A stretch of 64,000 nt of DNA, taken from assembly GCA_026414765.1 (NCBI GenBank), contig JAOAIJ010000047.1:27297-91296 (forward strand), given 5' to 3'. The translations under genes and the position numbers were made by a program. This document shows positions 14,259 to 49,153 of the stretch, piece by piece (the stretch's first letter is position 1; each line of letters opens with the position of its first letter). Origin of the DNA: Clostridia bacterium. Its GTDB lineage: Bacteria; Bacillota; Clostridia; Acetivibrionales; DSM-27016. The notes under the pieces are model-generated. The model had not been told where the DNA came from. It made no database searches and was given only the letters and a program-made list of their open reading frames with translations.

Positions 14259-14290
14259 CTATCGGAATTCCCTGAAGCAGGTAAGTATTT

Positions 14291-14324
14291 AAAAAGGCGA
14301 TACCCTCAAGTATCGCCTTTTATA
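14291..14324. terminator. bidirectional rho-independent terminator (ACT gene / citrate synthase)
   Basis: AAGGCGATAC-CCTCAA-GTATCGCCTT flanked by A5 and T4. Confidence 0.85.
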
Positions 14325-14328
14325 TTGT

Positions 14329-22743: not shown

Positions 22744-23496
22744 TTATTCAAAAACCCATTCCAACCTTGCAGTGAATGCCTTTTTTTGAGTTGTATGATT
22801 CATCCCCTGAAAAAAGTATACTCCATGGTTTTCCGGATAAATCCCTTTACCGATGGTTATTTTATCCCCCAATTTGGTTTCAGACAGCAGGTCTATCCTG
22901 AGTGAATCCAGCTGTCCCTGCATTGATAAATCCCCGAAAAAGCTGTCCATTATCCAATCGATGTATTTTGCATTATTAACATGCCTATTTACATCTATAT
23001 CGCTATAAGCTGCAGTAATATGACTTTGTTCCGGCAAGTCACATTCTATCTTCAATTTATCAAGCTTTTCATCAATCCCATGTTCTTGCTGATTTATTGG
23101 TATACCCTCAGGTATAACATCTGACATTTTTTTGGGTCTCATTGTATCCTTGTCAAGTACCAGCCATGATGTGGTAGCTGAACACACAAGCTCACCGTTT
23201 CCCTTGAATATTAAAAAATCTCTCACGGCAAATAAGCCATCAGTTCCTTTCGGCCAGGTTTTTACCCTTAACTCGTCTTTCCAGCCTGCAATACCGTACA
23301 CTTTAACTTTAGCTCTGGACAAAACCCATATAAGTTCAGAATTATTAAAACTCTGTATATATCCAAGTTCCAGATTGTTTGCATGATTTGCAGCTGCCTC
23401 CTGCATGTAGCTAAACAATGAACCGGTTTTTATTCTGTTTTTGAAATCAACCTCACTAATTTTTACACTAAAGCTTTCTTCCCAAACTTTTCTCAT
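22744..23496 (-). CDS. acyl-ACP thioesterase
   Basis: 250 aa double hot-dog with FatA/B-like N-terminus FSVKISEVDFKNRIKTGSLFSYMQEAAANHANNL. GAGG RBS. Confidence 0.8.
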   Translation of the reverse strand: MRKVWEESFSVKISEVDFKNRIKTGSLFSYMQEAAANHANNLELGYIQSFNNSELIWVLSRAKVKVYGIAGWKDELRVKTWPKGTDGLFAVRDFLIFKGNGELVCSATTSWLVLDKDTMRPKKMSDVIPEGIPINQQEHGIDEKLDKLKIECDLPEQSHITAAYSDIDVNRHVNNAKYIDWIMDSFFGDLSMQGQLDSLRIDLLSETKLGDKITIGKGIYPENHGVYFFQGMNHTTQKKAFTARLEWVFE

Positions 23497-27468: not shown

Positions 27469-28371
27469 TTATTCATTACAGAAGAACTCATACTCCCTTG
27501 ACCACTCGCAAACCTCTCCAGGTGCTATATTTATATCTATGAACACTTCAGGGCTTATTACATGTGTAGTCCCCCATAATGCAATAAGTGAAGCAGGCAG
27601 GCAGCTATACTCCTTCACACCTACTCCGCTTGGCATATGTATAAGTTCCCAAATGTGCGGATTTCCTTTTTGATAACCTGCCGGGCGGTTGTAAAAATCG
27701 GACTCAGGCTGCTCCTTCCATGTAATAGTATTTCCGTCAGCTTTCAAAATCCTGCCTTCAGGAATATCATCCAGTTCTACATCAAAGGACATTTTCAAGG
27801 AGTAATCAGGACCTACAAGCTGTCCGTTTATACCAATAAAATTATGATAGTATTCATGGGTAATAATCTGTTTTGTTCCTGTGTTTTTCAGCCGGTATTC
27901 GATCTTAAGCTTGTTGTCGCATACCCTGAGCAGCTTTCTAAGTTCTGCAGAATAGCCATTTGCTTCCAACGGCCCGGAAACAAACTCAATATAGTCTTTG
28001 CCTGTATTGACTTTTATAGGAAAAGGTTCAATTTCATAATTTTCTGCAAAGGAATAAGGTGAATCATCCTTCCTTGTAAGCAGTCCAACCCCAAGCTTAG
28101 GAAATTTTCCACCGGGTTTGGTTTCATCATAACCAATAGCGCTGCTTATACCAAATTCGTTACACAGGCCTGCACCACCGGTTCCTATACCAGGCTTCAG
28201 ACTTTCTGGCACACAAAACTTATATTTCTTATCCAATTCCACCTGCGTTATAAATCCTGTCCAGTCAAAACGTGAGCCTTTGTAAAAAGTGCCAGGTTTG
28301 GAAACAGTCACTTCCAGCCTTGTTGTGGCGATAACAGTTGAATCTTCCAGAGTATCCAAATCATATATCAT
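27469..28371 (-). CDS. hypothetical protein (possibly a mutarotase-like beta-sandwich)
   Basis: GGGGG RBS, 300 aa. No diagnostic motif that I can name. Confidence 0.45.
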   Translation of the reverse strand: MIYDLDTLEDSTVIATTRLEVTVSKPGTFYKGSRFDWTGFITQVELDKKYKFCVPESLKPGIGTGGAGLCNEFGISSAIGYDETKPGGKFPKLGVGLLTRKDDSPYSFAENYEIEPFPIKVNTGKDYIEFVSGPLEANGYSAELRKLLRVCDNKLKIEYRLKNTGTKQIITHEYYHNFIGINGQLVGPDYSLKMSFDVELDDIPEGRILKADGNTITWKEQPESDFYNRPAGYQKGNPHIWELIHMPSGVGVKEYSCLPASLIALWGTTHVISPEVFIDINIAPGEVCEWSREYEFFCNE

Positions 28372-28540: not shown

Positions 28541-30247
28541 ATGGAAGAGCCAATTGTACTAAAACGTGTATTTTCCGAATTTAAAAACCTGAAACACAAA
28601 ATTGATATCAATGCCGCAGCAGTATTCCTGTTGTTTTTTATTTTCAACACTCTGAAAGTCTCTGTTTTCAATTTATTTATCACCAGCTCAACACTAAATA
28701 CCGGAAGTATACTTTATAAGCTTTTATTGTCTTTCTCTATTACTTTTTTATTGTATGAATTACTCTTACTTTTTTCAAGCAGAGTACTTATCTCTGTTTT
28801 TTTCGTACTTCAGACAGTCTACATATTTGCCAACCTCTCATATTACCTGTATTTTCATTATTACTTGCACCTTTCACAGTCGTCTGCTCTGTTTTCGGAG
28901 GGTCTTGGTGCAGCAGGCCATTTCGCTATACCTAAAAATCTGAAATTGTTGATACTGCTAGTTGATCTACCCTTTTTCATATTCTTTCTGCTTCTATATA
29001 AAAGAATTCTCGAATTAAAGAGAAAGCTTCATATTATAAGAAAGTTTATAGCCCTAATATGCCTCTCAGCCATACTGATCACTGAAAGCTGGAATTATGT
29101 CCACAACTACTCGCTGGCGCATTTCATTAAGGACTACTCCTCTTACGAAACACTTATAGTAGAAAGATACGGCACAGTTGTAAATAATGCTGTAGACAGC
29201 TGGGTTAACAGAAACGACCAAAAGCTGATTAATTCTTTAGCATACGGTAAAACAATTTCCGCAAAACCTTCGGCTGCTCAAAAACCTAATTTTGTCATAA
29301 TACAGGTAGAATCAATGGACTCAAATATAATCCGCAAGCAGTATAATGGTAAATACATAATGCCGTTTTTGAATTCAATATCTGAGGAATGCATTTACTA
29401 TCCATATACATTAAGCTATCACAAGGCAGGGGGAACCTCAGACTGTGAATTTTCTACCATGAATAGTATTGAGCCTTTGGATAACTTCCCGTCCATGAAG
29501 ATAAGCAGCTATACATATCCAAACTCATTTATAAAAATCCTGTCTGCAAACTCATACCATACAGCAGTATTTCACGGTAATACGGCATCCTACTTTTCGC
29601 GTGATAAGGCATATGTCAAAATGGGATTTAAAGAATTCCACGACATGCAGAAAATGGGATTGGGCAATGTAGGCTGGGGCGCACCGGACAAGGATGTGTT
29701 CGCTTACACCTTAGGCCAAATGAAAAAACAAATATCCCCATTTCTCTATTATGTAATTACCATGACAAGTCATGGTCCTTATACCAACGCAAATTATTAC
29801 TATGATAATAATAACTACGACGGTATTAATAATGTTGTCGTCCGGGACTATTTCAACTCCATGTCTTATGTAGACCAAACTCTAAACTTTTTTGTTGATT
29901 TTATAAGGGAAAATCTCAAAAACACCTATATAGTAATTCTGGGTGACCACACTCCCGGTATATATAATGATATTTTCAGACAAGCATCTTTTTATCTTGA
30001 CGGGAAGTATTTCGAACTGGTTCCTGTCATGATAATTACTCCTGAAGGGGAAATACGTAAGGAAGAAAGCATTTCAGCTTCATTTCTTGATATTGCACCT
30101 ACAATACTCAGTAAATCAGGTGTTTCATTCCAATACAAAACCAATGGAATTAACCTTTTTAGCTATAAAAGTGCAGGAAGCATCCCATACAAAGGATCAG
30201 ATTATGACCGGAAATTAATATATGAAAAAGTCAGTCCTGTAAATTAA
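28541..30247 (+). CDS. LTA-synthase-family (sulfatase) membrane protein, paralogue 2
   Basis: GGGGGAAG RBS. N-terminal TM bundle, then IIQVESMDS, GGTSDCEF, MTSHGPY and LGDHTPG. Confidence 0.75.
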   Translation: MEEPIVLKRVFSEFKNLKHKIDINAAAVFLLFFIFNTLKVSVFNLFITSSTLNTGSILYKLLLSFSITFLLYELLLLFSSRVLISVFFVLQTVYIFANLSYYLYFHYYLHLSQSSALFSEGLGAAGHFAIPKNLKLLILLVDLPFFIFFLLLYKRILELKRKLHIIRKFIALICLSAILITESWNYVHNYSLAHFIKDYSSYETLIVERYGTVVNNAVDSWVNRNDQKLINSLAYGKTISAKPSAAQKPNFVIIQVESMDSNIIRKQYNGKYIMPFLNSISEECIYYPYTLSYHKAGGTSDCEFSTMNSIEPLDNFPSMKISSYTYPNSFIKILSANSYHTAVFHGNTASYFSRDKAYVKMGFKEFHDMQKMGLGNVGWGAPDKDVFAYTLGQMKKQISPFLYYVITMTSHGPYTNANYYYDNNNYDGINNVVVRDYFNSMSYVDQTLNFFVDFIRENLKNTYIVILGDHTPGIYNDIFRQASFYLDGKYFELVPVMIITPEGEIRKEESISASFLDIAPTILSKSGVSFQYKTNGINLFSYKSAGSIPYKGSDYDRKLIYEKVSPVN

Positions 30248-30261: not shown

Positions 30262-30310
30262 CTATCCCCACAAGCCCCAAGTTTATAAACTTAAGGCTTT
30301 ATGGGGATAG
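30262..30310. terminator. long hairpin between convergent genes (LtaS-like gene / BGC operon end)
   Basis: CTATCCCCA...AAGCC..AAGTTTATAAACTT..GGCTT...TGGGGATAG. Nested stems surround a perfect 14-nt palindrome. T-runs are weak. Confidence 0.5.
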
Positions 30311-30338
30311 AAATGCACTCCCCGCTCATTACAGAAAA

Positions 30339-30581
30339 CTATACTTTTTCTTTAATATACGAAACCAAATCCCCTACAACCTTAAATCTGTTAAAATCCA
30401 GATCCTCGTCTTCAAGGTCAAGATCAAATTCCTTCTCCAATGCAATAATAGCTTTTATGAACTCAACAGAATTTATGCCCAGGTTAATCAGTTCATCTTC
30501 TATTTCGATTTCTTTGCCTGCCAGTTCACTCAACTGTTTATTCAATATTGCAATTATCCTGCTTTCTACTTCGTTAGACAT
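30339..30581 (-). CDS. free-standing acyl carrier protein
   Basis: 80 aa, acidic. ACP-type motif LINLGINSVEFIKAIIALE. GGAGGAAG RBS. Last gene of the operon. Confidence 0.8.
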   Translation of the reverse strand: MSNEVESRIIAILNKQLSELAGKEIEIEDELINLGINSVEFIKAIIALEKEFDLDLEDEDLDFNRFKVVGDLVSYIKEKV

Positions 30582-30609
30582 AAATTGCTTCCTCCTAATA
30601 TTTAACTTT

Positions 30610-33600
30610 TCATATACCCATCATAGCACATAATTTGTTATAGTACTCGTATTCAAGCTTAATTGCACGATCCAGCTTTTCAGTACATGTTAAGAATGTT
30701 TCCCTCTTATAACGCGATGTATATAAAAGTCTTGCGATCCTTGCCCTTATGAAACTCAGAAGATCTATGCACTCCAGAATAATTCCCTCGATTTCGGAGT
30801 AGTTTGTAACCAGTCTGGAATTTCTGTAGTTCATTGCCTGTTTTGCATTTATCAAGTTGTTAAGCAGTTCCAGCACCAGTGCAGCACTTTCTTTGATTGC
30901 TCCTTCATCCGCTGCAGCTGCTTCAAACTGCTTATAAAACTCTTCATAATACTTGAAACTGTTGAATACTTCATTTTTCACTTCAATAAAGTTGGCTTTG
31001 AAGCTGTGCAAATCATCCTCGTCTTCAATATCAGCCAAACCTTCAATTGAGCTGAATTCATAATAACTTGGGAACTCAGTTTTGTCATGAACCTTCATGG
31101 ATGCAAACTCGATTTCAGAAATATCGATGTTTCTGAAATTCTCCAGGAAGCCATTATATGCATTAACCAAATCCGAATAGCCTATAGTACGTTTTTCATA
31201 AACAAGGCTTCCTGAATGGCGATGCTCCAGTATATCAAAGGTTTTTTCCCTCTCATTAAACCCATAAATCAAAAGGCAATGAGGCCAGTGTGTTTTTTGG
31301 TATGTGTCCTTCCTTATGGATTCATAAAAACAGTCTACACAAACGATAACAAGCTTGTCTGCAGAAATCGCCCTGACTATATCCTGGGTCAGAGTGCTGG
31401 TGTACGGCTTTGATTCTACATGTATCCCAAGCCTTTCCGATACTTCAAAAATTGGGGTTTTCATTAAGTACCCTACATTTACTCCTTCTACCCCCATATA
31501 TTCCCTGTTTCCGTATATACCGATTTCATTTGCCATGTAGGAAAGCACAGATTTGTTAAAATGCCTCACTACCGGAAAAAGTGCACTATAAAAGCATCCC
31601 CTATAAATTATTTCATTAAATGGCTCGACACTATCCAATACCTTCAATTCATCTGAAGAACCGGTTTGTTTGACACTGCTTGCAGTCACCTTATCTTCTG
31701 ACGCCTTCTCTTCAAAGGCTTTAATGTTGTCATCATCACTGCTTTCTGTTTTCTGTACAATATCACTTGCATTTTCCCCTTTATCCAGGTATTCAGCCAA
31801 TTCATATATTGTAGGATGGCTGTTAATATCCGAATATTCTATTATCAGGTTGCTTTTCTCCATTTCAGTTTCCATTCGTACTGCAAGTAATGAATTTCCT
31901 CCCATAGCAAAGAAATCATCATTAATGTCTATTTCCTCCATCCCAAGGAGAGTACCCCAAATCTGCCCTATTATCCTTTCTGTACCGGTATAGTTGCCGT
32001 CTCCTCTTCCTTTAAGCTTTACGTCAGCAAGCTGTGTATTGGATTTTGCTATATTGTTATTCCCTGCTCTGTCTTTTAGTCTTTTTACCGCAGCTGATAT
32101 TTCCGTTGAGATTTTAAAAGGCAGCTCGGTTTCATTTTGGAAAACTTCATGCCCATAATCCGGTTCAGCTATAACTATTCTTCCTACATTCCTGCCAAGT
32201 ACTTCTTCAAAAGCACTTAATGCGTCAGCAGTTGAAATCGTCTTGAATATGTCATCCTTATCAGCCCCAAATTCAACAGCCATTCCGGTTTCCTTCCATG
32301 CAGGCCAATTGATTGTTATTGTCCTTTTTCCTTGCTTGTTCCTGTAGAAACTGAATGAATCCAGGTATGAATTTGCAGCTGTATAGTCCCCCTGCCCGGC
32401 CCCGCCCAATATGGATGCAATGGATGAGAATGATATAAAGAAATCCATCTCTTCACTCCGGGTCAGGTTGTCCAATATCCATGCTCCGTCCATCTTAGGA
32501 TTAATAACGCTTTTGAACGTATCTTCACTCCTATTTATAATAAAACCATTACCTGCTACTCCGGCAGCGTGTATGATGCCGCTTACCCTGCCATATTTCC
32601 CTCTCAGCTCATCTATCAGGACTTTCATAGCATCAAAGTTTGTTACATCAGCACTGCAGCATACAATACTTGCTCCGGAAGCCTCCATCGCCTTTATAGC
32701 TTCAATCTGCTTACAAACCTTCCTGTTTTCATTCTTTGAAAGTATACCGTCCCAGTCCTCCCTCTCCGGGAATTGTGAACGGCTAACAAGGCATAAGTTA
32801 ACTTTTCCTTTCGACGATAGATATTTACCGATTTCCAGACCTAATCCGCCCATACCTCCCGTTATCAGATAGATACCTTCAGCTTTTATTTCGCAGCTGA
32901 CCGCTGCTTTCTCTTCAATATCCATCCTCCGGAACATTTCTATATATCTCTTTCCATTCCTATAGGCAGCCATATACTTTTTACTATCAGATTTAATTTC
33001 ATTAAGAAGATCATCCGCACAAGTATTTTTATCTATGTCCAGACACCTTAAGCTCAATTTGTCATTTTCAGCACCGACAACCTTCCCAATGCCCATGAAA
33101 GCGGCATTATAAGGGTTTATAGCTTCTTCCTCCCCATTAACTTCACTTGCATAATCAGAAATCAATAGCATCTGCAAATTATTTTTAAGTTTTTTGCTTG
33201 ATACCGTCTTAGCTATATAGTACATGCTGAATAATCCATTTTTCTTTTTGCTTTGCAGACTCTCAAAAGTTTCCTTCTCAACAGTTCCGTAAATATTAAG
33301 CATATGTACGATTTTTGAGTATTCATGGATGTTTATGTCTTCGATTAACTTATTGTAGTCTTCTTGTATTCCTTGGATAACAAACCTGTTTTCACCGGTT
33401 TTCTGATACTTGTCTCCAAGTTCTACTTCCGTTACACTGGCACCTGAATCTTTCAATGATTTTACCAGCTCATCTGCAGTCTGAACTTTACTTTTTAATA
33501 CAAGTATTTTCAATCCAGAAATATCTTGCTCTCCGGCTTTCAGATCCTCCTGTACCCAACTCATTTCATAATAAGGACTGCCTTTTCCTGATAATTTTCT

Positions 33601-36471
33601 GAATGTACTGGCCGCTTCATTCACTCTTTTAACTGTATAATCTTCAACTTCTGCAAAAACCAAACCGTCTTCCGTCATCAGAGTGACATCGAAAGTCAAA
33701 CTTTCCGGATTTTCCTGTTTAGGAGACCGTCTCCTCAGATGGCTGTAGAGTTTTCCCGGAGTTGATCCATATGTTTTTAGAACTTTGTAGGTCAGAGGAA
33801 GATAGAGTCCTTCACCAATACTTGTATTAGCCATGTTAATGGCATTATCCATCAGGGAAGGATGCAGCCTGTACTCGTCCAGATCTTTAATAAATTCTGC
33901 CGGAAGCTCAAAGTAACCAAGTGTTTCATTATCACCGATATATGCTTTTCTTCCGCTATTCCACCTTGGTCCGAATCCAAAAGGCCCATTATCATCATTA
34001 CTGTCGCTGATAATTTCCGTGGAACATCTGGCTTTGATTTCGCTGATGTCTACTCTTTTTGCTCCTTCCTGTGTGCCTACCGAAACACTGCCTTCTGCGT
34101 GTTTAGCCCAGTTTCCATCCAAATCCTTGCTTGCGACAATAAAATCAAGATGTCCATCATAAGGCTTGACAATAGTCTGTACTTCCTTCTGCTCCCCTTC
34201 GTTTACTACCAGAGGTGTAATAAAAATAACATTTTTCAGCACTAAGTTTTTGTCCTGGTAGAATTCACTGCTCGCTTCTATAGCCATTTCCAGGTATGTA
34301 GTCCCCGGAACCACGTAATTACCTATTACTCTGTGGTCACTGAGAACCCAATGACGCTTGACCTCAAAATAAGTGGTGAAAATATGACTATCAAATGATT
34401 CCAAATGTTCATCGTACAGAGGATATTTACTTTTGGCATGATCTTTTTGTGTACCGAAAATCATATCACCAAATTCCCTGGGGTTAGCCCACAGCCTTAC
34501 TCGCTCAAAAGGGTATGCAGGCAGCGATACACGTTTGAGTTTTTTGCCTTTGTAAAGGTTATCCCAATCAATTTCAGCTCCCTCTACATAAAGCCTGCTT
34601 AATTCATACAGATCATTTTCAGTGTATGATTCACTTCCGGAAATCCTCTGAATGAGGTTTGATGCCGAAAGGGTTATTCTCCCCATTTGTTCTTCTGTGA
34701 TCCCGGCAGCATCAGATGATTTTTTACCACTTTGCGTAATTTTGTGCTGTCCGAAGAAAACACCGTTTTCATTTGATTTATTGAATCCGTGTTGAGCTAT
34801 GTGAGAAATTTTCTCTTTCAGTTCATCAAAGCTGCCGGCTACTATAGCAATCCTATAAGAAAAGTGTCCTCTCCCGGTATTTGCAGTGAAGCATACATTT
34901 TTCAAGTTGTTATTAGCATTTTTACTGAAGAAATCTGTATATTTTTTTACGTAATCTTCAAGTACATTTTCACTTCTAGCTGATATAGTGAATATTTGAG
35001 GTTTGCCGTCTATGACCGCCTCTGCACTTTTTTCAACTTCGGGGGCCTCTTCAAGAATAATGTGGCAGTTTGTTCCGCTGAAACCGAAGGAGCTCACTCC
35101 TGCTCTCCTCGGAACATCACTTTTTTTCCATTCCCTGGTACTGTCGTTTACAAATATAGGGCTGTTACAAAAATCTATATACGGGTTCGGTTCATCAAAG
35201 TTAATTACAGCAGGAATTTTCTCTTTCTTCATTGCAAGTACTACTTTCATTAAAGATGCCGGACCTGAAGCTGCTACCAAGTGGCCTATATTCGGTTTTG
35301 CCGATCCTATACCGCAAAATTGCTTTTTATCCGTAAACCTTGCTAGCGCATTGGAAAGTCCTTTTATTTCAATCGGATCTCCGAGTACAGTACCCGTAGC
35401 ATGGGCTTCCACGTATGAAATAGTTTCCGGGTTTACTTTAGCATTTTTCCAGGCCTGTATGATCACTTCTTCCTGTGCCTCAGCGTTTGGAGCCGTTATC
35501 CCGTTTGAAGTGCCGTCGTTGTTTATCGCACTTCCTTTTATTACAGCATGAATATTATCTCCATCTTCGACAGCTTTGGACAAAGGTTTAAGGAACAGTA
35601 CTCCGACACCCTCACCCCATACGGTACCGTTTGCATTTTTATCGAATGTCCTGACTTTTGAATCCTTTGATTCCACCATGGACATATTGGTGTTCTCCCC
35701 ATTAATATTGGGACGCGATGCTATCTGAATACCACCTGCAAGTGCATAATCACACTCCTTGTTTTTTAGCGCCTTGCATGCTTCATGTATCGCGGTAGCA
35801 CCTGATGAACAAGCTGTATCTATAACCATTCCCGGCCCTTTAAAATCAAATGCATACGAAATTCTGGTAGCAAGTATGCCTGCCCATGAACCTGTCAGAT
35901 GCATCTGATCCTGTTCAGTTATAATACTGTAGATTGAAGAGTTTGTATTATCTCTCCCTACATATACCCCGGTATTTGTACCTTGTACCTTTTTTCCGCC
36001 GTAGCCTGCATCTTCAATAGCTTCCCATGCAGCTTCCATAAAAACCCTCTGCATCGGATCAATAAACTTTGCTTCTCTCGGGGGGATGTGGAAAAATCCT
36101 GCATCAAATTTATCTACTTCATCAAGATATCCTGATTCTATAAATTTAATCCTTTTATTACTTATATCTTCATCCTTAATATCTGCATTGATCATGGTTT
36201 TTCTTATAACCGTATTGGACAGTACTGTATAAAAATCTTCTTTCCTTTTTTCCGGCAAATCTCTGATTGAAACAACCCCATTTATCAGGTTGTTCCAGAA
36301 TTCTTCAGGGTTATCGGCTTGTGGAAATCTGCAGGCCATACCAATAATCGCAATATCATCGTCTGCTCTTGAAGGCTTTGTTTTTAACTCCAGCAACATA
36401 CTTTTAGCTTCTTCCTGGGATAGTTTATTAGAAGCTACCTGCTTAATAATATAGTTTTTTGTTTTTTCCAT
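30610..36471 (-). CDS. trans-AT type I PKS, terminal module: KS-DH-KR-T plus a C-terminal BtrH_N/DUF4872-like Cys/His domain
   Basis: KS: DTACSSGATAIH, EAHATGT, PNIGH. DH: HWVLSDHRVIGNYVVPGT, HPSLMD. KR: GIYLITGGMGGLGLEIG, GDYTAAN. T: FFAMGGNSLLAV. No AT domain. 346 extra aa follow the T domain. Confidence 0.9.
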   Translation of the reverse strand: MEKTKNYIIKQVASNKLSQEEAKSMLLELKTKPSRADDDIAIIGMACRFPQADNPEEFWNNLINGVVSIRDLPEKRKEDFYTVLSNTVIRKTMINADIKDEDISNKRIKFIESGYLDEVDKFDAGFFHIPPREAKFIDPMQRVFMEAAWEAIEDAGYGGKKVQGTNTGVYVGRDNTNSSIYSIITEQDQMHLTGSWAGILATRISYAFDFKGPGMVIDTACSSGATAIHEACKALKNKECDYALAGGIQIASRPNINGENTNMSMVESKDSKVRTFDKNANGTVWGEGVGVLFLKPLSKAVEDGDNIHAVIKGSAINNDGTSNGITAPNAEAQEEVIIQAWKNAKVNPETISYVEAHATGTVLGDPIEIKGLSNALARFTDKKQFCGIGSAKPNIGHLVAASGPASLMKVVLAMKKEKIPAVINFDEPNPYIDFCNSPIFVNDSTREWKKSDVPRRAGVSSFGFSGTNCHIILEEAPEVEKSAEAVIDGKPQIFTISARSENVLEDYVKKYTDFFSKNANNNLKNVCFTANTGRGHFSYRIAIVAGSFDELKEKISHIAQHGFNKSNENGVFFGQHKITQSGKKSSDAAGITEEQMGRITLSASNLIQRISGSESYTENDLYELSRLYVEGAEIDWDNLYKGKKLKRVSLPAYPFERVRLWANPREFGDMIFGTQKDHAKSKYPLYDEHLESFDSHIFTTYFEVKRHWVLSDHRVIGNYVVPGTTYLEMAIEASSEFYQDKNLVLKNVIFITPLVVNEGEQKEVQTIVKPYDGHLDFIVASKDLDGNWAKHAEGSVSVGTQEGAKRVDISEIKARCSTEIISDSNDDNGPFGFGPRWNSGRKAYIGDNETLGYFELPAEFIKDLDEYRLHPSLMDNAINMANTSIGEGLYLPLTYKVLKTYGSTPGKLYSHLRRRSPKQENPESLTFDVTLMTEDGLVFAEVEDYTVKRVNEAASTFRKLSGKGSPYYEMSWVQEDLKAGEQDISGLKILVLKSKVQTADELVKSLKDSGASVTEVELGDKYQKTGENRFVIQGIQEDYNKLIEDINIHEYSKIVHMLNIYGTVEKETFESLQSKKKNGLFSMYYIAKTVSSKKLKNNLQMLLISDYASEVNGEEEAINPYNAAFMGIGKVVGAENDKLSLRCLDIDKNTCADDLLNEIKSDSKKYMAAYRNGKRYIEMFRRMDIEEKAAVSCEIKAEGIYLITGGMGGLGLEIGKYLSSKGKVNLCLVSRSQFPEREDWDGILSKNENRKVCKQIEAIKAMEASGASIVCCSADVTNFDAMKVLIDELRGKYGRVSGIIHAAGVAGNGFIINRSEDTFKSVINPKMDGAWILDNLTRSEEMDFFISFSSIASILGGAGQGDYTAANSYLDSFSFYRNKQGKRTITINWPAWKETGMAVEFGADKDDIFKTISTADALSAFEEVLGRNVGRIVIAEPDYGHEVFQNETELPFKISTEISAAVKRLKDRAGNNNIAKSNTQLADVKLKGRGDGNYTGTERIIGQIWGTLLGMEEIDINDDFFAMGGNSLLAVRMETEMEKSNLIIEYSDINSHPTIYELAEYLDKGENASDIVQKTESSDDDNIKAFEEKASEDKVTASSVKQTGSSDELKVLDSVEPFNEIIYRGCFYSALFPVVRHFNKSVLSYMANEIGIYGNREYMGVEGVNVGYLMKTPIFEVSERLGIHVESKPYTSTLTQDIVRAISADKLVIVCVDCFYESIRKDTYQKTHWPHCLLIYGFNEREKTFDILEHRHSGSLVYEKRTIGYSDLVNAYNGFLENFRNIDISEIEFASMKVHDKTEFPSYYEFSSIEGLADIEDEDDLHSFKANFIEVKNEVFNSFKYYEEFYKQFEAAAADEGAIKESAALVLELLNNLINAKQAMNYRNSRLVTNYSEIEGIILECIDLLSFIRARIARLLYTSRYKRETFLTCTEKLDRAIKLEYEYYNKLCAMMGI
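30613..31650 (-). other. C-terminal BtrH_N/DUF4872-like domain of the terminal PKS
   Basis: YRGCFYSAL (Cys codon 31594..31596), LVIVCVDCFYESIRKDTYQKTHWPHCLLIYGF, then a helical tail. Paralogous to ORF 46628..47818. No GxSxG, HHxxxDG or Rossmann motif. Confidence 0.55.
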
Positions 36472-36485: not shown

Positions 36486-39400
36486 CTACTCCAAAAGTTT
36501 TTCAGCTTCTTCTACAGATATATCTCCGTCAGCAAGTCGTTTCAGCATAGCATCCAATTCCGCATCTATATCGCTGTCATCCTCCTCTATCCTTTCAAAT
36601 TCCTTTTTCTTGTTCATTTTGCTGTCAAGATATGCAGCCATATCACCTATTGTCGAGTAAGTAAATACATCTGAAATATCAACCAATCCGCCATACTCCT
36701 TCTGCATCTCTCTTAGGAGACGTGTCGAAAGAATCGAATCCCCGCCCAAATCGCTGAAGTTATCATATACATCAACTTCATTTATACCCAGAACCAATGC
36801 CCATAGCTTTGCAAGGCTGTGCTCTGTGTCCGTATAATCCTGGTTTATTTTCCCTTTGAGCACAATACTTATACTGCCTAAATCCTTACTGCTATGATCA
36901 GCTTTGTTGATACCGCTACCTTTTGTTTTCCCAAAATTACGCCTGATCTCGTCCGACAAAGCTATAGGCATGGTATCTTTAACAAGTTCTATTACCTTAT
37001 AATTGAGTTTAGCGGGGATGGCCCTGACTACAGCTGAATTTACCAGTTTTTCAAAAGCATTTATGCCTTCTCCGGTAGACACAGGTTTAAACAATGAATC
37101 CTCACTGACTGCATTATAGTCCACTGCCATACCTGTTTCACTCCATGCGGGCCAGTTTATTGCCAAAGCATTCTTCCCTTGTCTTGCCATGTACTGTGCA
37201 TAAGAATCCATAAATGCATTTGCAGCAGTATAATCTCCTTGACCTGGAGCTCCCGTAAGACTGGTAATAGATGAAAACATGATAAAAAAGTCCAGCTTGA
37301 AGTCTTCGGTCATTTTATCAAGAATACACGTTCCTGTCGTTTTTGGTACTAATACATTCCTAAATACACCGGTTTCTTTTTTAATAATAAAACCGTCTCC
37401 GGCCACACCGGCAGCATGAATTACTCCATTTACCGTCCCATACCGGCTTTTTATCTCAGAAATGGCACTTAGTACTGAATCCGGATTGGAGACATCAGCC
37501 GGATAGTGCAAAACTATAGAGCCTGTTTTTTCCATATCTAGGATGTCTGTTATCTTTTTACACAACTTGTAGTCATTATTAGCCTCAAGTATTTCTTCCC
37601 ACCGTTCCCGCTCAGGCAGCGCTGACCTTGTTATCATGCACAAGTTTACTTTTCCTTTTTCAGAAAGGTATCTCGCTACTTCAAGGCCTATACCTCCGGT
37701 GCCGCCTGTGATTATGTATACCCCCCCATTTTTAATTTCAATTTGTCTGGGAGCGAGATCTTTTTTATCTATAGCTCTGAATTCTTCCACATACCTTTTA
37801 CCGTCCCTATAAGCCACAAGCTGCGGATTATCCTGCGCTGCAAGCTCGCTTATGATGTTTTCGGCTTTGGTACTCTCATCTATATCTATGCATACACAGC
37901 TTATGTCCGGGTACTCCTGTTGTATTACTCTACCGAGACCAATAAATGCTGCGTTATGTGGACTAATCTGCTTTTCTGTTTTAGAAACCTCATAAGCATA
38001 GTCGCTTATCAGCGCTAGCCGTATATTGCCTGCTTTTAGATTCACTAACGCTTTTGTCAGATAAAACAGGCTATATACCCCTTTTTCCATCTTCACTTCG
38101 TTTTCTTCTAGACCTCCGCTTTCATCCCTTGATTCAAGTGAAAACATGTGAATGACATGAGATACTTTCTCCGGCAGTTCTGATACCAGGCGAATATAGT
38201 CTTCTTCTGTAAAACCGATTGAATATCTGCATTCATCTATCTTCTCAAAGCAGCTTCCAATCTCAGCACAGTATACCTTTAGGCCTTGGTTTTTCAATTG
38301 TTCCGCCACTTCCGTGCCTCTTTTACCCTTTTCTGTAAACACAAGAACTGCATTGCCGCTTATTTTGCCGGCTATATCTTCAAGAAGCTTTTCATTCCAC
38401 CCTATTTCAAAATAATCCAATACTTTTGACTTATTAGCATTACCGAACTCTGTACTATGTACCTTCTTCACCGTATAGTCTTCTGCTACAGCTATAACAT
38501 TACCTTCAGTATCCAGTATTGATATATCGAAGCATCCGGTTTCACTGTTTTCCTTAAATTCGTTTTTCCTCGATATGTAACTGTATATACAAGCAGGCAG
38601 CCTGTCATATATTTTTAATTTTTTATATGAAAGCGGCAGGTAAAGTCCTTGTCCGATAGTACCGTTACACATGTTTACGGCACTATCCAGCAAAGCCGGA
38701 TGCATGTAGTACTCTTCAAGATCTTTAATATACTCCCTGGGTAATTCCATGTAAGCCAGTATTTCGTCTTCCGCCAGGTGTGCATATTTGAAGTTTTTAA
38801 ACCTTGGCCCTGTCTCTACACCATCGGGTTCTTCTTCTATATCACTTAACTCTTCTATTTTAGAAAACTTTTTCTTTAGCTCCTCAATATCAATTTTATC
38901 CGGCCGTTTTCCTTCAGTTACGAAAAACCGCCCCTCAGAATGTTTTCTCCAGCCTTCTTCTGCCTCTGATTTGCTTATTACCGAAAATTCATAGTATCCA
39001 TTATCCTTTTTCACGACAGTCTGGGCCTCCACTTCCATGCCCTCCTGTGCGGCCAATGGAGCTAAAAACACTACTTCGTTCATTTCAATAACATCACTGC
39101 TGCCAGATCTGTATCCTCTTGCTATCTGGCTTGCTATCTCAATGTGAGTGGTACCCGGAACTACATATGTCCCCGCTACCTTGTGCTCACTCAATACCCA
39201 ATGCTTTTCCACACTGAAATTTGTAGCATAAATATCTATTTCCATAGAATTCGCCAAGCATGTATCCAAAACCGGGTGTCCAATGTTCCCGTAACTGTGT
39301 TTGACTGCCTTCTCATGCGCTTTCCCAGGATCAACCCAATGCTTTTCTTTTAGGAACGGATAAACCGGCAGGCTTACCTTTTTATATTTTGAAGAGTGGT

Positions 39401-41294
39401 AAATCTTTTTCCAATCAATCTCCCCACCTTTAATATAGAGTCTGGCAAGCTCCTCCAGGTTAATTCTGTATTCTTCGGTATTTGCACACCTTCCAGCCTG
39501 TCCGGCTAAGTTATCCGCCTTCAAATTCAAATCTTTCAATTCATCAGAAGTGATTTCGCCATCTAATTTGTTTTGCTTGGAAGCAGATACTATTTTATGC
39601 TCTCCCAGCAGTATTCCTTTCTCATTTATATTTACAAGACCGGTATTTTTTATTAATCCGATTTTACTTTTCAGGTCCTCCATGTTTTCTGCAATCACTG
39701 CAAGCCGCAAGTTATAGTGCCCTCTGCCTGTATTTGCCGTATAGCAAATATTTCTGATTTCGCTTTCTTCCTTATCCAGGTATCCGCTGTACAAATCAAC
39801 CAGCTTGCTTAAAGACTCTCTATTTCTTGCTGATAAAGACAGTATTTGAGGTTTTTCCCCTTCAACAGATTCTTTCAGTTCATTTTTATTTTTATATTCT
39901 TCAAGTATAAGATGACAGTTTGTACCGCTTAATCCAAAAGAACTTATTCCGCATCTTCTGGGAAAACCTTCTGTTTGCCACTTGCTCAACCTGTCATTTA
40001 CATATACAGGAGAATCCTCGAAAGCTATTTTACGATTCGGCTTTTGAAAATGCAAACACGCTGGTATTTCTCCGTTTTTCAAAGCCATAACCGACTTTAT
40101 TAATGCAGCTATGCCGGCGGCATGATCCAGATGTCCGATATTAGTCTTTACAGATGCTACTGCGCAGAATTGTTTTTTTTGCGTGTAATTCTCAAAAGCT
40201 CTCTTAATGCCTGTTATTTCTATAGGATCGCCAAGCTTTGTTCCCGTACCGTGTGCTTCGATGTATGTAATTGTTTCAGGATCAATGCCCGCGTCCTTCC
40301 ATGCCCTGAGTATTACTTCTTCCTGTGCCGCCATATTTGGTGCAGTTATGCCCACAGAACTCCCATCCTGATTTGCAGCACTCCCCTTTATTACGGCATA
40401 AATGTGGTCACCATCTTCGACAGCTTTATTTAGCGGTTTTAGCAATACTGCTCCTACACCTTCCCCAACACCGGTGCCGTCTGAACTGTCATCAAATGTC
40501 TTTGCCCTTCCGGTAGAAGAACCAATTCCAATATTTCCTTGCCCGCTTTTTTCACGTACAGGGACAACTAAAACTTTTACAGATCCTGCAATAGCATAAT
40601 CACATTCTCCGTTTCTTATTGCCTGACATGCCGTATGTACAGCTACAAGTGCTGATGAACAAGCAGTGTCTATCATAACACTTGGCCCTTTCAAATCCAG
40701 CAGGTAAGATATTCTGCTACCGATAATAGATCTTATGTTTCCGGTTACAGCAGCTTCGTCGTTGGTGTCAGTTACCATCCTGCTGTATCTTTTATATTCC
40801 TCTCCAAAGTCGGAGCTGTAGCCTACATACACTCCTGTCCTTGTTCCTGAAAGTGTTTTTCCGCCATAACCTGCATCTTCTATTGCTTCCCATACAACTT
40901 CAAGAAGCAAACGTTGGTTGGGATCCATTAAGTCAGCCTCTTTAGGGGAAATATTGAACATAGAACAATCAAAGTTGTCTATCCTTTTCATATATGCAGC
41001 ATCAATAAATTCAAACTCTTCCTTTGGAACTCCGAGCCTCTCCAAAGATTTTATATATGCTTCCCCTACTTTTTTCCTTTCATTTGAAACCCCGGAGATA
41101 AAATCGCTTCCTTCTTTTATACCCTCCCAAAAATCCTGTGCATTTTCTGCCCAACCAAACCTGCCTGACAAACCTACTATAGCTATGTCACGCTTTGATA
41201 TATTCTCTATCTGAAATCGCGGCTTGGCAGCATCGCCGCTACTTCTTATACCTTTTACACTTAACAGTTTTTCCACCTTTACCCCTCCAGTCAA
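36486..41294 (-). CDS. trans-AT type I PKS: KS-DH-KR-T
   Basis: KS: DTACSSALVAVH, EAHGTGT, TNIGH. DH: HWVLSEHKVAGTYVVPGT, HPALLD. KR: GVYIITGGTGGIGLEVA, GDYTAAN. T: FSDLGGDSILSTRL. The track start is TTG; a GTG at 41276 lies 5 nt after GGAGGGG. Confidence 0.9.
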   Translation of the reverse strand: MTGGVKVEKLLSVKGIRSSGDAAKPRFQIENISKRDIAIVGLSGRFGWAENAQDFWEGIKEGSDFISGVSNERKKVGEAYIKSLERLGVPKEEFEFIDAAYMKRIDNFDCSMFNISPKEADLMDPNQRLLLEVVWEAIEDAGYGGKTLSGTRTGVYVGYSSDFGEEYKRYSRMVTDTNDEAAVTGNIRSIIGSRISYLLDLKGPSVMIDTACSSALVAVHTACQAIRNGECDYAIAGSVKVLVVPVREKSGQGNIGIGSSTGRAKTFDDSSDGTGVGEGVGAVLLKPLNKAVEDGDHIYAVIKGSAANQDGSSVGITAPNMAAQEEVILRAWKDAGIDPETITYIEAHGTGTKLGDPIEITGIKRAFENYTQKKQFCAVASVKTNIGHLDHAAGIAALIKSVMALKNGEIPACLHFQKPNRKIAFEDSPVYVNDRLSKWQTEGFPRRCGISSFGLSGTNCHLILEEYKNKNELKESVEGEKPQILSLSARNRESLSKLVDLYSGYLDKEESEIRNICYTANTGRGHYNLRLAVIAENMEDLKSKIGLIKNTGLVNINEKGILLGEHKIVSASKQNKLDGEITSDELKDLNLKADNLAGQAGRCANTEEYRINLEELARLYIKGGEIDWKKIYHSSKYKKVSLPVYPFLKEKHWVDPGKAHEKAVKHSYGNIGHPVLDTCLANSMEIDIYATNFSVEKHWVLSEHKVAGTYVVPGTTHIEIASQIARGYRSGSSDVIEMNEVVFLAPLAAQEGMEVEAQTVVKKDNGYYEFSVISKSEAEEGWRKHSEGRFFVTEGKRPDKIDIEELKKKFSKIEELSDIEEEPDGVETGPRFKNFKYAHLAEDEILAYMELPREYIKDLEEYYMHPALLDSAVNMCNGTIGQGLYLPLSYKKLKIYDRLPACIYSYISRKNEFKENSETGCFDISILDTEGNVIAVAEDYTVKKVHSTEFGNANKSKVLDYFEIGWNEKLLEDIAGKISGNAVLVFTEKGKRGTEVAEQLKNQGLKVYCAEIGSCFEKIDECRYSIGFTEEDYIRLVSELPEKVSHVIHMFSLESRDESGGLEENEVKMEKGVYSLFYLTKALVNLKAGNIRLALISDYAYEVSKTEKQISPHNAAFIGLGRVIQQEYPDISCVCIDIDESTKAENIISELAAQDNPQLVAYRDGKRYVEEFRAIDKKDLAPRQIEIKNGGVYIITGGTGGIGLEVARYLSEKGKVNLCMITRSALPERERWEEILEANNDYKLCKKITDILDMEKTGSIVLHYPADVSNPDSVLSAISEIKSRYGTVNGVIHAAGVAGDGFIIKKETGVFRNVLVPKTTGTCILDKMTEDFKLDFFIMFSSITSLTGAPGQGDYTAANAFMDSYAQYMARQGKNALAINWPAWSETGMAVDYNAVSEDSLFKPVSTGEGINAFEKLVNSAVVRAIPAKLNYKVIELVKDTMPIALSDEIRRNFGKTKGSGINKADHSSKDLGSISIVLKGKINQDYTDTEHSLAKLWALVLGINEVDVYDNFSDLGGDSILSTRLLREMQKEYGGLVDISDVFTYSTIGDMAAYLDSKMNKKKEFERIEEDDSDIDAELDAMLKRLADGDISVEEAEKLLE

Positions 41295-41306: not shown

Positions 41307-42578
41307 CTATGCGGAAAAGTCCTTATCACTAAATAAGTGTTTCAGACCTGTTTCCTTAAATAACTGATCAAACCTACTGTTTTGTTCCTCCAACGGAGTT
41401 TTTTTAGTAGCAAAAACAGATTTCAGCATGTTTAGTGCTTCCTGCATCTGCTCAATCGTTGGTTCATTTCCAGCGATCTCCATATCCTCCTGCATTTGCT
41501 TCACCTTCTTATATGGCTTGATTACACCATTTTGATACTCATCGTTGTCCCAATTGTTGTTTTTGGTGCATACTGCAATTGCAAGACATCTTGTAATCAG
41601 CTTCATGCGCATTTCTATACAGTCTTGTACTTTAACCGGAATTATTGAAAGTGCTTCTCCCAAATTCTTTATATCCTCTTCCTGGTCATATGAAAATGTA
41701 TTAATTGAAGAAGTGTTGTTCTTCATAAGATTCCTCAATACTGTCTGTGGACCAAGCTCAATTGCCAGATTAACCCCTTGCGCTTCGAGATACTTCATGG
41801 ATTCAATCCAGCGTACGGGCTTTATTATTTGCTGGTACAGGCAGTCCACTATGTATTCGTAACCATCATAGGGCAAAGCAGTAACATTTGAAACCACGTC
41901 CCACTTCAAATGGCTGTATGCGTACTTCTGGAGTTCTTCTCTCAGTTTGTCTGCAGCAGGCTGCATCAGAGGACTGTGAAATGGTGCACTTACTTTTAAA
42001 GGTATTACTCTTGCACCTGACTTTTTCAGTTCATCACCTGCACCGTTAACAGCGGTTGTATGGCCTGAAATAACAATCTGTCCGGGTGAGTTGTAATTTG
42101 AGATTACAACCATACGGTCATTATCTGAAAACTTTTTGCATACAGCTTCTATTTCTTCTTTATTTATTCCGCTGACAGCCGCCATCGCGCCTATACCCTG
42201 AGGAACAGCTTCCTGCATAAACCTGCCCCTGCTGCGGACAATGCTTACAGCGTCCTGGAATTTTATTGCTCCTGCACATACCAGAGCAGAAAACTCTCCC
42301 AGACTGTGTCCTGCAAGATATGCTGGCTCTTCCCCAAATTCACTCATATATGCTTTAAAAGCAGCTACACTGACAGTTAGTATTGCAGGCTGTGTATTTT
42401 CAGTTTTTGTCAATTCCGCTATATCACCTTCAAAACAGAGTTTTTTCAAATCAAATCCCAACACTTCACTTGCTTCACCAAACAGTTCCCTGGCCTCAGG
42501 ATAATTTTCATAAAGATTTTTACCCATACCTACATACTGAGAACCCTGACCCGGAAACAATAATGCAATCTTTTTCAT
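41307..42578 (-). CDS. discrete (trans) acyltransferase, FabD-like with a ~110-aa C-terminal extension, copy 2
   Basis: LFPGQGSQYVGM, GHSLGEFSAL, RGRFMQ, VSAPFHSPLM. The ATG directly abuts the TAA stop of the upstream NRPS gene. Confidence 0.88.
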   Translation of the reverse strand: MKKIALLFPGQGSQYVGMGKNLYENYPEARELFGEASEVLGFDLKKLCFEGDIAELTKTENTQPAILTVSVAAFKAYMSEFGEEPAYLAGHSLGEFSALVCAGAIKFQDAVSIVRSRGRFMQEAVPQGIGAMAAVSGINKEEIEAVCKKFSDNDRMVVISNYNSPGQIVISGHTTAVNGAGDELKKSGARVIPLKVSAPFHSPLMQPAADKLREELQKYAYSHLKWDVVSNVTALPYDGYEYIVDCLYQQIIKPVRWIESMKYLEAQGVNLAIELGPQTVLRNLMKNNTSSINTFSYDQEEDIKNLGEALSIIPVKVQDCIEMRMKLITRCLAIAVCTKNNNWDNDEYQNGVIKPYKKVKQMQEDMEIAGNEPTIEQMQEALNMLKSVFATKKTPLEEQNSRFDQLFKETGLKHLFSDKDFSA

Positions 42579-46627: not shown

Positions 46628-47818
46628 TTAAAACCCATCAAGATTATTTATTGAATTTTTTAGTTGAATGAATATCTCCTCCTCGTAATCCGCGAGAGCC
46701 TTAACCCTGAGAGAAATTTTGGTGTTTACCGGGTCCGGCTCATCCAACAAAGCCCCCTTCATAACAAGTGTGTGCACTGTATGCCACTTTGAGGATGCTG
46801 TCTCCAGTCCGGCAATAATTGTAGATATATCAGGCACATCATGATATACGCTCAGGGCTTTTAAGAATTTTGCAAACTGCCGTCTTCCCCGGACAATCTC
46901 ATCAATCTTTAAAGATATAAGCCAGTTATAGAAATTGTTATACTCTTGAGCTTCTTTAACATAATCAATGTTTTTTTCAAAGTAGCCTGCAAATTCCCTC
47001 ATGGCATTAAACGCTCCGGGAGTTTGCTTTTTGCCTTCGATTTTCAGCATATTATCCTTTAGAAGGTCAAGCCAGGGCAGCTGACTGTTTACATTTTCAT
47101 CAAACCTGATTTTAGTTATTATTGGGCCAATACCTTCTTTAAGTTCATCAACCGAAATATACAATTGTTTTTCCGGTGAAGTGTATGGGTCTATATATAT
47201 AAGGCTATTATTGAGGGAATCTATTCCAACCGCCATAAACGAGTGATAATAAAAATGACTCTTCTTATAATTAGGTGCACAAGGATTCCAATAAGAGTCT
47301 ATCCAAATGATTAAAGGCCTTCCTTCTTCCAGTTCACTCTTAGCAGTATCCAGAACTTGTTCTAACGACTTTACCTCGCAGTTGAAAAGCTTAATGCCAA
47401 GGAAATCTTCTGCCAGCCGCTGGGAATCATTGATACCTGAATCAATCATATTACCAATGATTCCTTGCCTGTCAGCGTCCGGTGTAAATTCGAATCCCCA
47501 TGAATCGGCAAAAACCACTTCATATTCCAGACCTCTCCAGACTGCCAGACTGGCTATCAAGTCCTGAGTACAGTCACAAGTAACATCATGAACGGAATCA
47601 ACATTCAGTAAAATATAGTTTTTACGTAGACTTCTTACTATTTCTTCTTTTTTTTCCCCTATTGTTTTTAGCATCTCCTGTGTAAGTACCCCTTTTGGAG
47701 CCTTATAACGCAATATGTTTCCATCTACCCACAATTTTACCTTCCTATTGTTAAGTTCTTCCAAAAGGTTGTTAATTGTCTGGCTGCCGTCCTCAATGTT
47801 ACCTATGTTCACAAGCAT
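46628..47818 (-). CDS. stand-alone BtrH_N/DUF4872-like Cys/His protein with an N-terminal TubC_N-type NRPS docking domain
   Basis: N-terminus LLEELNNRKVKLWVDGNILRYKAPKGVLTQEMLKTIGEKKEEIV, then CDCTQDLIASLAVWRGLEYEVVFADSWGFEF and EEGRPLIIWIDSYWNPCAPNYKKSHFYYHSFMAVGID. GGAGGGG RBS. Confidence 0.6.
   Translation of the reverse strand: MLVNIGNIEDGSQTINNLLEELNNRKVKLWVDGNILRYKAPKGVLTQEMLKTIGEKKEEIVRSLRKNYILLNVDSVHDVTCDCTQDLIASLAVWRGLEYEVVFADSWGFEFTPDADRQGIIGNMIDSGINDSQRLAEDFLGIKLFNCEVKSLEQVLDTAKSELEEGRPLIIWIDSYWNPCAPNYKKSHFYYHSFMAVGIDSLNNSLIYIDPYTSPEKQLYISVDELKEGIGPIITKIRFDENVNSQLPWLDLLKDNMLKIEGKKQTPGAFNAMREFAGYFEKNIDYVKEAQEYNNFYNWLISLKIDEIVRGRRQFAKFLKALSVYHDVPDISTIIAGLETASSKWHTVHTLVMKGALLDEPDPVNTKISLRVKALADYEEEIFIQLKNSINNLDGF
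47621..47785 (-). other. TubC_N-like docking domain on the BtrH-like protein
   Basis: KLWVDGNILRYKAPKG core, shared with the N-termini of the NRPS genes at 46365..46529 and 56150..56314. Confidence 0.7.
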
Positions 47819-49106: not shown

Positions 49107-49153
49107 GTGATTTCCTCCAATCATAACTCTTTGTTTTGTATATTTAATTAAGT

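Follow-up and report, generated by a model that had tools for sequence, protein, structure and literature searches.

A papain-like, transacylase-type domain behind the last carrier of a clostridial modular polyketide synthase and its proposed role in chain release

A C-terminal domain beyond the last carrier

This work concerns a domain of 346 residues at the C-terminus of a modular polyketide synthase (PKS), encoded in a stretch of 64,000 nucleotides (nt; hereafter the window) from a Clostridia bacterium (GenBank assembly GCA_026414765.1, contig JAOAIJ010000047.1, positions 27,297 to 91,296 of the forward strand). All genes of the biosynthetic cluster, including the PKS gene that carries the domain, lie on the minus strand. 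As judged from its open reading frame (ORF), translation and Pfam matches, the last PKS gene of the cluster (30610-36471, minus strand) encodes 1953 residues with ketosynthase (KS), dehydratase (DH), ketoreductase (KR) and acyl carrier protein (ACP) domains, followed by the C-terminal papain-like domain. An exact look-up identifies the protein as NCBI entry MCX8132080.1, the sole name of which is 'SDR family NAD(P)-dependent oxidoreductase'. Pfam detects KS, remnants of the linker between KS and acyltransferase (AT), DH, KR and PP-binding in the 1953 residues, and finds no AT domain there. Because an integrated AT is missing and two stand-alone acyltransferases are encoded nearby (41307-42578 and 47844-49124), the synthase is assigned to the trans-AT type.

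The last ACP domain (31786-31971, minus strand; residues 1501-1562, Pfam PP-binding) holds the carrier motif FFAMGGNSLLAV that had been picked out in an earlier reading of the letters alone (the sequence-only reading), with Ser1527 (GGNS) as the attachment serine. An acidic, Ser-rich linker of about 45 residues leads from the ACP to the domain of about 340 residues, which ends at the stop codon. The sequence-only reading had let the protein continue for 346 residues after the carrier and had concluded that it ends in a BtrH-like Cys/His domain instead of a thioesterase (TE) or reductase. This conclusion is confirmed, and the figure of 346 residues is correct for the domain itself (30613-31650, minus strand, coordinates unchanged; residues 1608-1953), the whole extension beyond the ACP amounting to about 390 residues. 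The domain is of the CtaG/CcbD/BtrH transacylase type, and is made up of a papain-like half, in which the catalytic residues lie, and a half of five helices. In agreement with the earlier description, a motif scan of the 346-residue region finds neither GxSxG nor HHxxxDG nor GxGxxG. The domain hence differs from type I TEs, lacking GxSxG and any match to Pfam Thioesterase, from reductase (R) domains, lacking the Rossmann GxGxxG and any NAD_binding/SDR match after the last carrier, and from terminal condensation (C) domains, lacking HHxxxDG and any match to Pfam Condensation.

Against Pfam BtrH_N (PF14399), the domain scores 24.1 bits within the whole protein and 26.4 bits when excised (E 9e-6), below the cut-off of 29.7, and the alignment spans profile positions 51-130 of 134 only; a match to Peptidase_C39_2 is likewise below cut-off (E 1.5e-4). 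Pfam detects neither DUF4872 (PF16169; cut-off 28 bits) nor DUF6005, the AsbE family, in the domain, and no NCBIfam family matches it. Its stand-alone homologues reach 19-30 bits on BtrH_N, two of them with a weak DUF6005 similarity (E 9e-4 and 3.5e-3, under the 25-bit cut-off), and a search of the family profile against the sequences of the PDB returned coiled-coil noise only.

The AlphaFold2 model of the domain (nine-sequence input; pLDDT 81.5, pTM 0.79) displays an alpha/beta half and then five long helices over residues 243-373 of the 376-residue query, i.e. the helical C-terminal half that had been anticipated. Foldseek retrieves 17 matches from the PDB at E<=3e-4, all with probability 1.0 and exclusively to CtaG, CcbD and AziU2/U3, with 346-383 aligned columns in 16 of them, 299 in one, and TM scores up to 0.62. 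The best match overall is AziU2/U3, and the 18th match drops to E 0.09. The similarity to the BtrH-type fold, on which the sequence-only reading depended, is consequently strong and full-length, with CtaG, CcbD and AziU2/U3 all at probability 1.0. BtrH, AsbE and the AsbD-AsbE fusion MllDE have been placed in the same class, which is defined by a bipartite papain-plus-helical fold (PMC12865890). On the predicted model, the domain belongs to this CtaG/CcbD/BtrH/AsbE structural class, with a papain-like and a helical half over its full length. The architecture suggested earlier, BtrH_N plus DUF4872, therefore stands as a fold, but not as a pair of profile matches, as BtrH_N remains sub-threshold and DUF4872 undetected.

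Conservation was derived from an alignment of 53 non-redundant domain sequences, comprising that of the window and those of loci from public genomes. Cys1626 (codon 31594-31596, minus strand), at the N-terminus of the first helix, is the predicted acyl-accepting nucleophile and is present in 53/53 homologues. The same holds for His1731 (31279-31281, minus strand), located at the beginning of the beta-strand PHCLLIYGF and predicted to serve as general base, whereas Glu1749 (31225-31227, minus strand) on the next beta-strand (ILEH), the predicted third residue, is Glu in 52 sequences and Asp in one. In the model, Cys1626, His1731 and Glu1749 would form a triad in papain order, with the Cys opening a helix and the His and Glu on consecutive strands, and Glu1749 would be the third catalytic residue as in CcbD/LmbD. 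Asn1619 (31615-31617, minus strand), part of a P-F-N motif seven residues ahead of the Cys and conserved in all 53 sequences, is a candidate oxyanion-hole residue. Asp1713, Arg1720 and Gly1737 are also invariant across the alignment, and His1728 is kept in 51 of the 53 sequences. Cys1626, His1728 and His1731 sit exactly where the sequence-only reading had placed them, and the conservation of Cys and His among orthologues, on which its proposal hinged, is complete for Cys1626 and His1731. For mining purposes, the domain is captured by the signature [IV]D[CS][FY]YE[SP][IF]R together with an EPFN-x6-C motif.

Relatives in other genomes and partner genes

A word-indexed homologue search returned eight stand-alone relatives and no fused ones, a result that is misleading when compared with the profile searches. 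An exhaustive HMM search of 1.84 billion cluster representatives gave 1382 matches at E<=1e-3 and 643 at E<=1e-30, and in 82 of the best 150 cluster representatives the domain is located at the extreme C-terminus of proteins of 500-4500 residues. A genome scan with one genome per species found 52 loci, mostly from Bacillota (Paenibacillus, Cohnella, Brevibacillus, Clostridia, Ruminiclostridium, Lachnospiraceae) and also from Chloroflexota, Myxococcaceae and Atribacteria. The fetched loci contain 52 non-redundant homologues, a count separate from that of the 52 scanned loci. The domain follows an ACP or peptidyl carrier protein (PCP) and ends the protein in 38 of these, and is stand-alone in 14. 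Fused architectures include KS-DH-KR-ACP-X, KS-KR-ACP-X, KS-ACP-X, C-A-T-X and A-T-X (X, the domain; A, adenylation; T, thiolation), with a median of 87 residues between carrier Ser and catalytic Cys. The closest relatives, in loci L006 and L007, share 49-50% domain identity and the identical KS-DH-KR-ACP-X layout. Locus L038 presents the unfused arrangement, in which the gene for a KS-DH-KR-ACP protein is followed, in this order, by those for a stand-alone domain, a discrete carrier and a homologue of the stand-alone paralogue described below. This fission is evidence of the Rosetta-stone type for cooperation between the domain and the last ACP. Within 10 kb of any fused copy (38 loci), none of the megasynthases has an integrated TE. 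L016, L022 and L050 encode terminal C domains, and in L017 a TE-ending non-ribosomal peptide synthetase (NRPS) adjoins a stand-alone copy of the domain.

Downstream of the PKS gene, a discrete carrier of 80 residues is encoded (30339-30581, minus strand; motif LGINS38VEF), overlooked in the sequence-only reading. Its start codon lies 28 nt past the PKS stop with AGGAGG ahead, Pfam PP-binding is matched at 35.3 bits (cut-off 20.8), and no C-terminal docking tail is found on it. ORF lists with a floor of 100 residues omit this gene, and the antisense ORF of 110 residues at 30301-30633 (plus strand) is an artefact. A homologous small carrier gene occurs on the same strand at most 250 nt downstream of 17 of the 38 fused genes as opposed to 1 of 54 controls, i.e. 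the other carrier-containing megasynthase genes of the same loci (Fisher p 2.7e-7), a statistic that overstates independence, since 11 of the 17 pairs stem from related Paenibacillus/Cohnella clusters. The pair of fused gene and small carrier, with different architectures, is also present in L007, L008, L013, L036, L046 and L048, and a discrete carrier lies within 10 kb in 36 of 50 loci. The 80-residue protein is likely the partner carrier of the transacylase domain.

The second protein of interest is the stand-alone paralogue proposed in the sequence-only reading (46628-47818, minus strand; 396 residues; NCBI MCX8132084.1, named 'C39 family peptidase'), in which a TubC-type beta-hairpin dock (residues 15-65) precedes a BtrH_N-type transacylase. 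Pfam assigns 58.7 bits to TubC_N and 36.9 bits to BtrH_N, over the 29.7 cut-off. DUF4872 is insignificant (11.4 bits, E 0.27; 20.6 bits in the L006 homologue), and the NCBIfam model DarH_acyl, a BtrH-related acyltransferase, gives 15.5 bits against a cut-off of 300. In a search of PDB sequences, the docking domain resembles the solved AerJ, TubC and EpoB docks, and no other part of the protein is matched. BLASTP of the PKS domain against the paralogue yields nothing significant (best E 1.1), and the paralogy, which is real, is visible at the profile level only, hhalign of the two families giving 98.6% probability, E 7e-16 and 11% identity over 284 columns that cover both halves. The shared blocks noted earlier are recovered in this alignment, which pairs GCFY with DCTQ and HWPHCLLIYGF with HFYYHSFMAVGI. 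Cys1626, His1731 and Glu1749 align with Cys83, His192 and Asp210 of the paralogue, all three invariant in its family; by sequence, the protein is a distant paralogue of the PKS domain with a Cys-His-Asp triad.

Docks of the beta-hairpin type bind short C-terminal motifs of carrier-ending subunits, for instance in enacyloxin release (PMC13324335). The visible part of the cluster encodes three TubC_N-type docks as opposed to two acidic C-terminal tails, EEDSEEGFEEGEF (49154-49230, minus strand) and DDEELEGGTL (56358-56430, minus strand). With fewer tails than docks, the paralogue has to use the same tail as an NRPS module, or else to find its docking partner in a subunit encoded beyond the window. 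The dock is missing from the homologues of the paralogue in L024, L036, L041 and L018. The L006 homologue forms a fusion with a polysaccharide deacetylase, and genes for a carrier protein and an amidohydrolase follow.

Other neighbours recur around the domain: trans-ATs (20 loci), a third distant BtrH-like subfamily of about 370 residues (17 loci; hhalign probability 98.7% to the PKS domain), ABC exporters (16 loci), radical SAM-SPASM proteins (12 loci), homologues of the stand-alone paralogue (10 loci), methoxymalonyl-ACP-type cassettes (6 loci) and GT2 glycosyltransferases (5 loci). The third subfamily is exemplified by L008 12061-13167, L012 11114-12214 and L025 12580-13686, and is absent from the window. 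A frequent order in Paenibacillus is carrier protein, radical SAM-SPASM protein, third BtrH-like protein and GT2 glycosyltransferase. In L013, the gene for a KS-KR-ACP-domain protein and its small carrier are directly followed (11315-15010) by genes for a type II 3-dehydroquinate synthase (Pfam DHQS), a DeoC/LacD-family aldolase, a carrier and a stand-alone adenylation enzyme. The DHQS/aldolase pair resembles GriH and GriI of 3-amino-4-hydroxybenzoate biosynthesis, which suggests an amino-aromatic acid on a carrier as a possible acceptor in this locus. A stand-alone member of the family (P0007) is found in L003, L004 and L057 in a sugar-metabolism-like cluster with two carriers and an AMP-binding enzyme and no PKS, an arrangement reminiscent of butirosin-type sugar acylation.

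The surrounding cluster

Upstream of the genes discussed so far, the cluster runs off the window with a KS-KR-DH-ACP gene (59407 to beyond 63978, minus strand). This is followed by a gene for KS, an AT remnant (Acyl_transf_1 positions 1-117 only) and ACP without reductive domains in Pfam (56358-59414, minus strand), which may represent a non-elongating or beta-keto module, and by an NRPS module with TubC_N dock, C, A and T domains (52868-56314, minus strand; Pfam). The next PKS module, KS-KR-ACP (49154-52864, minus strand; assigned from Pfam and its termini), carries the acidic tail EEDSEEGFEEGEF, a possible partner for the dock of the NRPS at 42579-46562 or that of the stand-alone paralogue. 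Between this module and the last PKS gene lie, in addition to the paralogue, the two stand-alone ATs (47844-49124 and 41307-42578, both minus strand; Pfam), a second NRPS module with TubC_N dock, C, A, T and a tail of 202 residues (42579-46562, minus strand; Pfam), and a PKS module KS-DH-KR-ACP (36486-41294, minus strand; Pfam and termini), with a helical C-terminal tail that is the probable docking partner of the last PKS at its N-terminus. The docking tails would fit a colinear gene order, with basic helical tails before KS N-termini and acidic tails before beta-hairpin docks. In the 202-residue tail of the NRPS (42579-43187), which comes after the PCP, the second half of a condensation domain is present (Pfam positions 217-435 of 456), and the half that bears HHxxxDG is missing. 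Such half-condensation tails also follow A-T or C-A-T proteins in L023, L024, L025, L027, L036, L039 and L041, always in clusters with a fused domain.

At its other end, the cluster closes with the PKS and the discrete carrier, beyond which a convergent sulfatase-family gene (28541-30247, plus strand) and then housekeeping genes are located, a cluster end shared by L007. Two sulfatase-family (LtaS-like) genes are present in the window, at 10707-12512 (plus strand) and 28541-30247, and the 300-residue ORF 27469-28371 (minus strand) near the latter has no Pfam match. Pfam detects no TE, reductase or terminal C domain in the visible cluster (30.3-64 kb). A FatA-type acyl-ACP thioesterase (22744-23496, minus strand) was considered as release enzyme and rejected, being encoded 7 kb past the cluster end among housekeeping genes. 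With pyruvate formate-lyase, its activase, PtsI and a LexA-like gene as neighbours, it probably serves fatty-acid metabolism and not PKS release.

Proposed chain release and its alternatives

We propose, with a probability of roughly 60%, that the 346-residue domain is a competent ping-pong transacylase that off-loads the chain via acyl-S-Cys1626, probably in a relay between two carriers and to an acceptor other than water. The proposal builds on five points that are shown: the domain falls into the fold class, its triad is conserved, it is fused to the last carrier, the downstream carrier gene recurs, and the visible cluster has no canonical release domain. Each of the last two modules is of the KS-DH-KR-ACP type, from which we predict that the completed chain is a dienoyl thioester, tethered to the fused ACP at Ser1527. 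Judged by the architecture, this ACP would supply the domain with a carrier-bound acyl donor and is the presumed donor here; this polarity is modelled on AsbD-AsbE. Cys1626, activated by His1731 and Glu1749, would attack the thioester to give the acyl-S-enzyme in the first ping-pong half, and the acyl group would next move from Cys1626 to a nucleophile that is not water. As immediate partner, we favour the co-transcribed discrete carrier of 80 residues, which would act through its phosphopantetheine thiol or through an amine-bearing unit loaded on it, and the docked paralogue (46628-47818) may finish the transfer to the final acceptor, probably as an amide. That the transfer would proceed by transacylation rather than hydrolysis is inferred from family precedent, from which the sequence-only reading had also argued; the nature of the acceptor, the formation of an amide and the exclusion of water are what we infer. 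Whether the last carrier, the Cys-His-Glu transacylase and the small carrier together represent a hitherto unrecognised, widespread termination unit of modular PKS and NRPS assembly lines, often with one or two further paralogous transacylases, in which a carrier relay ends in an amide, is a more tentative matter. Such a unit would parallel the dual transacylation of enacyloxin in mechanism while consisting of protease-fold enzymes, and we regard this extension as quite possible, if somewhat short of even odds.

Several points weigh against the proposed transacylase role. The fold is assigned from a predicted model, the BtrH_N score is below cut-off and NCBIfam is silent, and sequence cannot separate a transferase from a hydrolase. 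Within the window, we can identify neither an acceptor nor an enzyme that would load the discrete carrier. The cluster continues past position 64000, where it could encode a TE, an adenylating enzyme or the biosynthesis of an amine. The relatedness of most carrier pairs reduces the weight of the statistic given above. In L016, L024 and L041, the domain-bearing gene is not the last megasynthase gene, and stand-alone type II thioesterases are present in 8 loci.

Alternatively, in line with the aminolysis considered in the sequence-only reading, a free small-molecule amine, such as a polyamine or an amino sugar, may attack acyl-S-Cys1626, the 80-residue carrier then serving another step. BtrH, AsbE and CcbD/LmbD all pair carrier-bound donors with free amine acceptors (PMC12865890, PMC12945683), the Cys-His-Glu triad is common to the domain and CcbD, and 21 of the 38 fused genes are without a directly downstream carrier gene. 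However, no amine-biosynthesis gene is visible in the window, the carrier gene is only 28 nt away from the PKS, and the pair recurs over different module architectures. With the carrier gene present, a relay from carrier to carrier is no less likely than direct attack by a free amine, and we rate the latter, as the complete account, as a credible but clearly less probable alternative.

The polarity could also be reversed, with the discrete carrier donating the acyl group, the domain capping a distal amine or hydroxyl of the ACP-tethered chain, and release being left to the paralogue or an unseen TE. Distal acylation is known from CtaG, which takes an acyl group from a second carrier and places it on the distal amine of a peptide bound to a carrier (PMC12865890). 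In L016, the domain-ending NRPS precedes an NRPS with a C domain at its start and a terminal C domain at its end, and the pair of fused gene and carrier has adenylating enzymes and additional carriers as neighbours in L013 and L046. Against these stand the known fusion AsbD-AsbE/MllDE, in which the fused carrier is the donor, and the fact that no enzyme to load the discrete carrier is visible either in the window or in L007. Moreover, the cluster of the window would be left without a release catalyst except the stand-alone paralogue, and we consider this arrangement unlikely.

Slightly less likely still is a TE-like release, by hydrolysis to the free acid or by cyclisation to a macrolactam or macrolactone through an internal nucleophile of the chain. 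Hydrolysis is the default activity of papain-fold enzymes, the acyl-enzyme of CtaG is slowly hydrolysed (PMC12865890), and the domain occupies the usual position of a TE with no TE present; yet all characterised Cys-bearing members of the bipartite fold class are transferases, and simple hydrolysis needs neither a conserved partner carrier gene nor co-occurring paralogues. Finally, a structural or docking remnant, or non-acyl chemistry as in AziU2/U3, the functionally unrelated aziridine-forming enzyme (PMC12865890) that tops the Foldseek list, is highly improbable given that Cys and His are invariant, and Glu is kept in 52 of 53 sequences with one Asp, across several phyla, which argues for papain-triad catalysis.

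The proposed transacylase draws on stand-alone enzymes and on a single type of fusion. CcbD/LmbD, the lincosamide condensing enzymes, operate with a Cys-His-Glu triad, shared with the domain, and catalyse carrier-dependent amide synthesis from a carrier-bound donor by a ping-pong mechanism (PMC12945683). CcbD of the celesticetin pathway resembles the domain also in fold (Foldseek E 1.3e-5, TM 0.56/0.59, about 375 columns), whereas these enzymes are stand-alone proteins of about 350 residues with 10-12% identity and a free amino sugar as acceptor, outside modular PKS/NRPS systems. Experiments on CtaG of closthioamide biosynthesis in Ruminiclostridium cellulolyticum, likewise a member of the Clostridia, have demonstrated that the acyl group passes from one carrier protein to another by way of an acyl-Cys intermediate (PMC7183216, PMC12865890). 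CtaG is similar in fold (E 2e-6 to 1e-5, TM up to 0.53/0.62) and differs in its Cys-His-Asp triad, its stand-alone form, its NRPS-independent pathway and an identity of 13-15%. BtrH, the butirosin ACP:aminoglycoside acyltransferase, is linked to the domain by the sub-threshold Pfam similarity (E 9e-6), and combines an ACP-bound donor and an amine acceptor with the bipartite papain-plus-helical architecture (PMC12865890); in contrast to the domain it is stand-alone, and the paralogue at 46628-47818 is closer to it than the PKS domain is.

In AsbD-AsbE/MllDE of petrobactin and methylolanthanin biosynthesis (DUF6005), the known carrier-transacylase fusion, the carrier is N-terminal to the papain-like transacylase and is the donor (PMC11317620, PMC12865890). 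It differs in that the fused part is one aryl carrier and not a module, in that the siderophore pathway is NRPS-independent, and in that a polyamine is the acceptor. Dual transacylation in the release of enacyloxin was reportedly described by Masschelein and co-workers in 2019. Under the relay reading, the enacyloxin system (KS0, the discrete PCP Bamb_5917 and the beta-hairpin-docked C domain Bamb_5915) has the same sequence of last ACP, discrete carrier and docked stand-alone condensing enzyme, and its dock is of the type found on the stand-alone paralogue (PMC13324335). Nevertheless, the catalysts are unrelated, being a KS0 and a C domain there and two papain-like enzymes here, and the discrete carrier of the window differs by its lack of a C-terminal docking tail. 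Canonical TE, R and terminal C domains share with the domain the C-terminal position after the last carrier, and differ in motifs, Pfam matches and fold.

What is already known thus comprises the stand-alone carrier-dependent papain-like transacylases BtrH, AsbE, CtaG and LmbD/CcbD and one single-carrier fusion, AsbD-AsbE/MllDE. In the full-text literature (subscription-only papers being outside the scope), we found no description of the domain fused C-terminally to a modular PKS or NRPS, and no report of the domain paired with a dedicated small carrier. Chain release sets the final chemistry of polyketides and non-ribosomal peptides. To our knowledge, the recognised types of release domains are few, namely TE, R and terminal C domains and some special cases. 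A protease-fold transacylase inside the megasynthase would be an additional type. The domain is represented in no fewer than 38 species-level genomes, predominantly of Paenibacillus and Clostridia, and in dozens of protein clusters at 50% identity. As the domain is invisible to annotation by Pfam, NCBIfam and NCBI name, genome-mining tools will mispredict the termination of these clusters; its signature motifs provide a direct handle for mining. The fused unit of ACP, transacylase and carrier could also become a portable tool for amide-forming off-loading.

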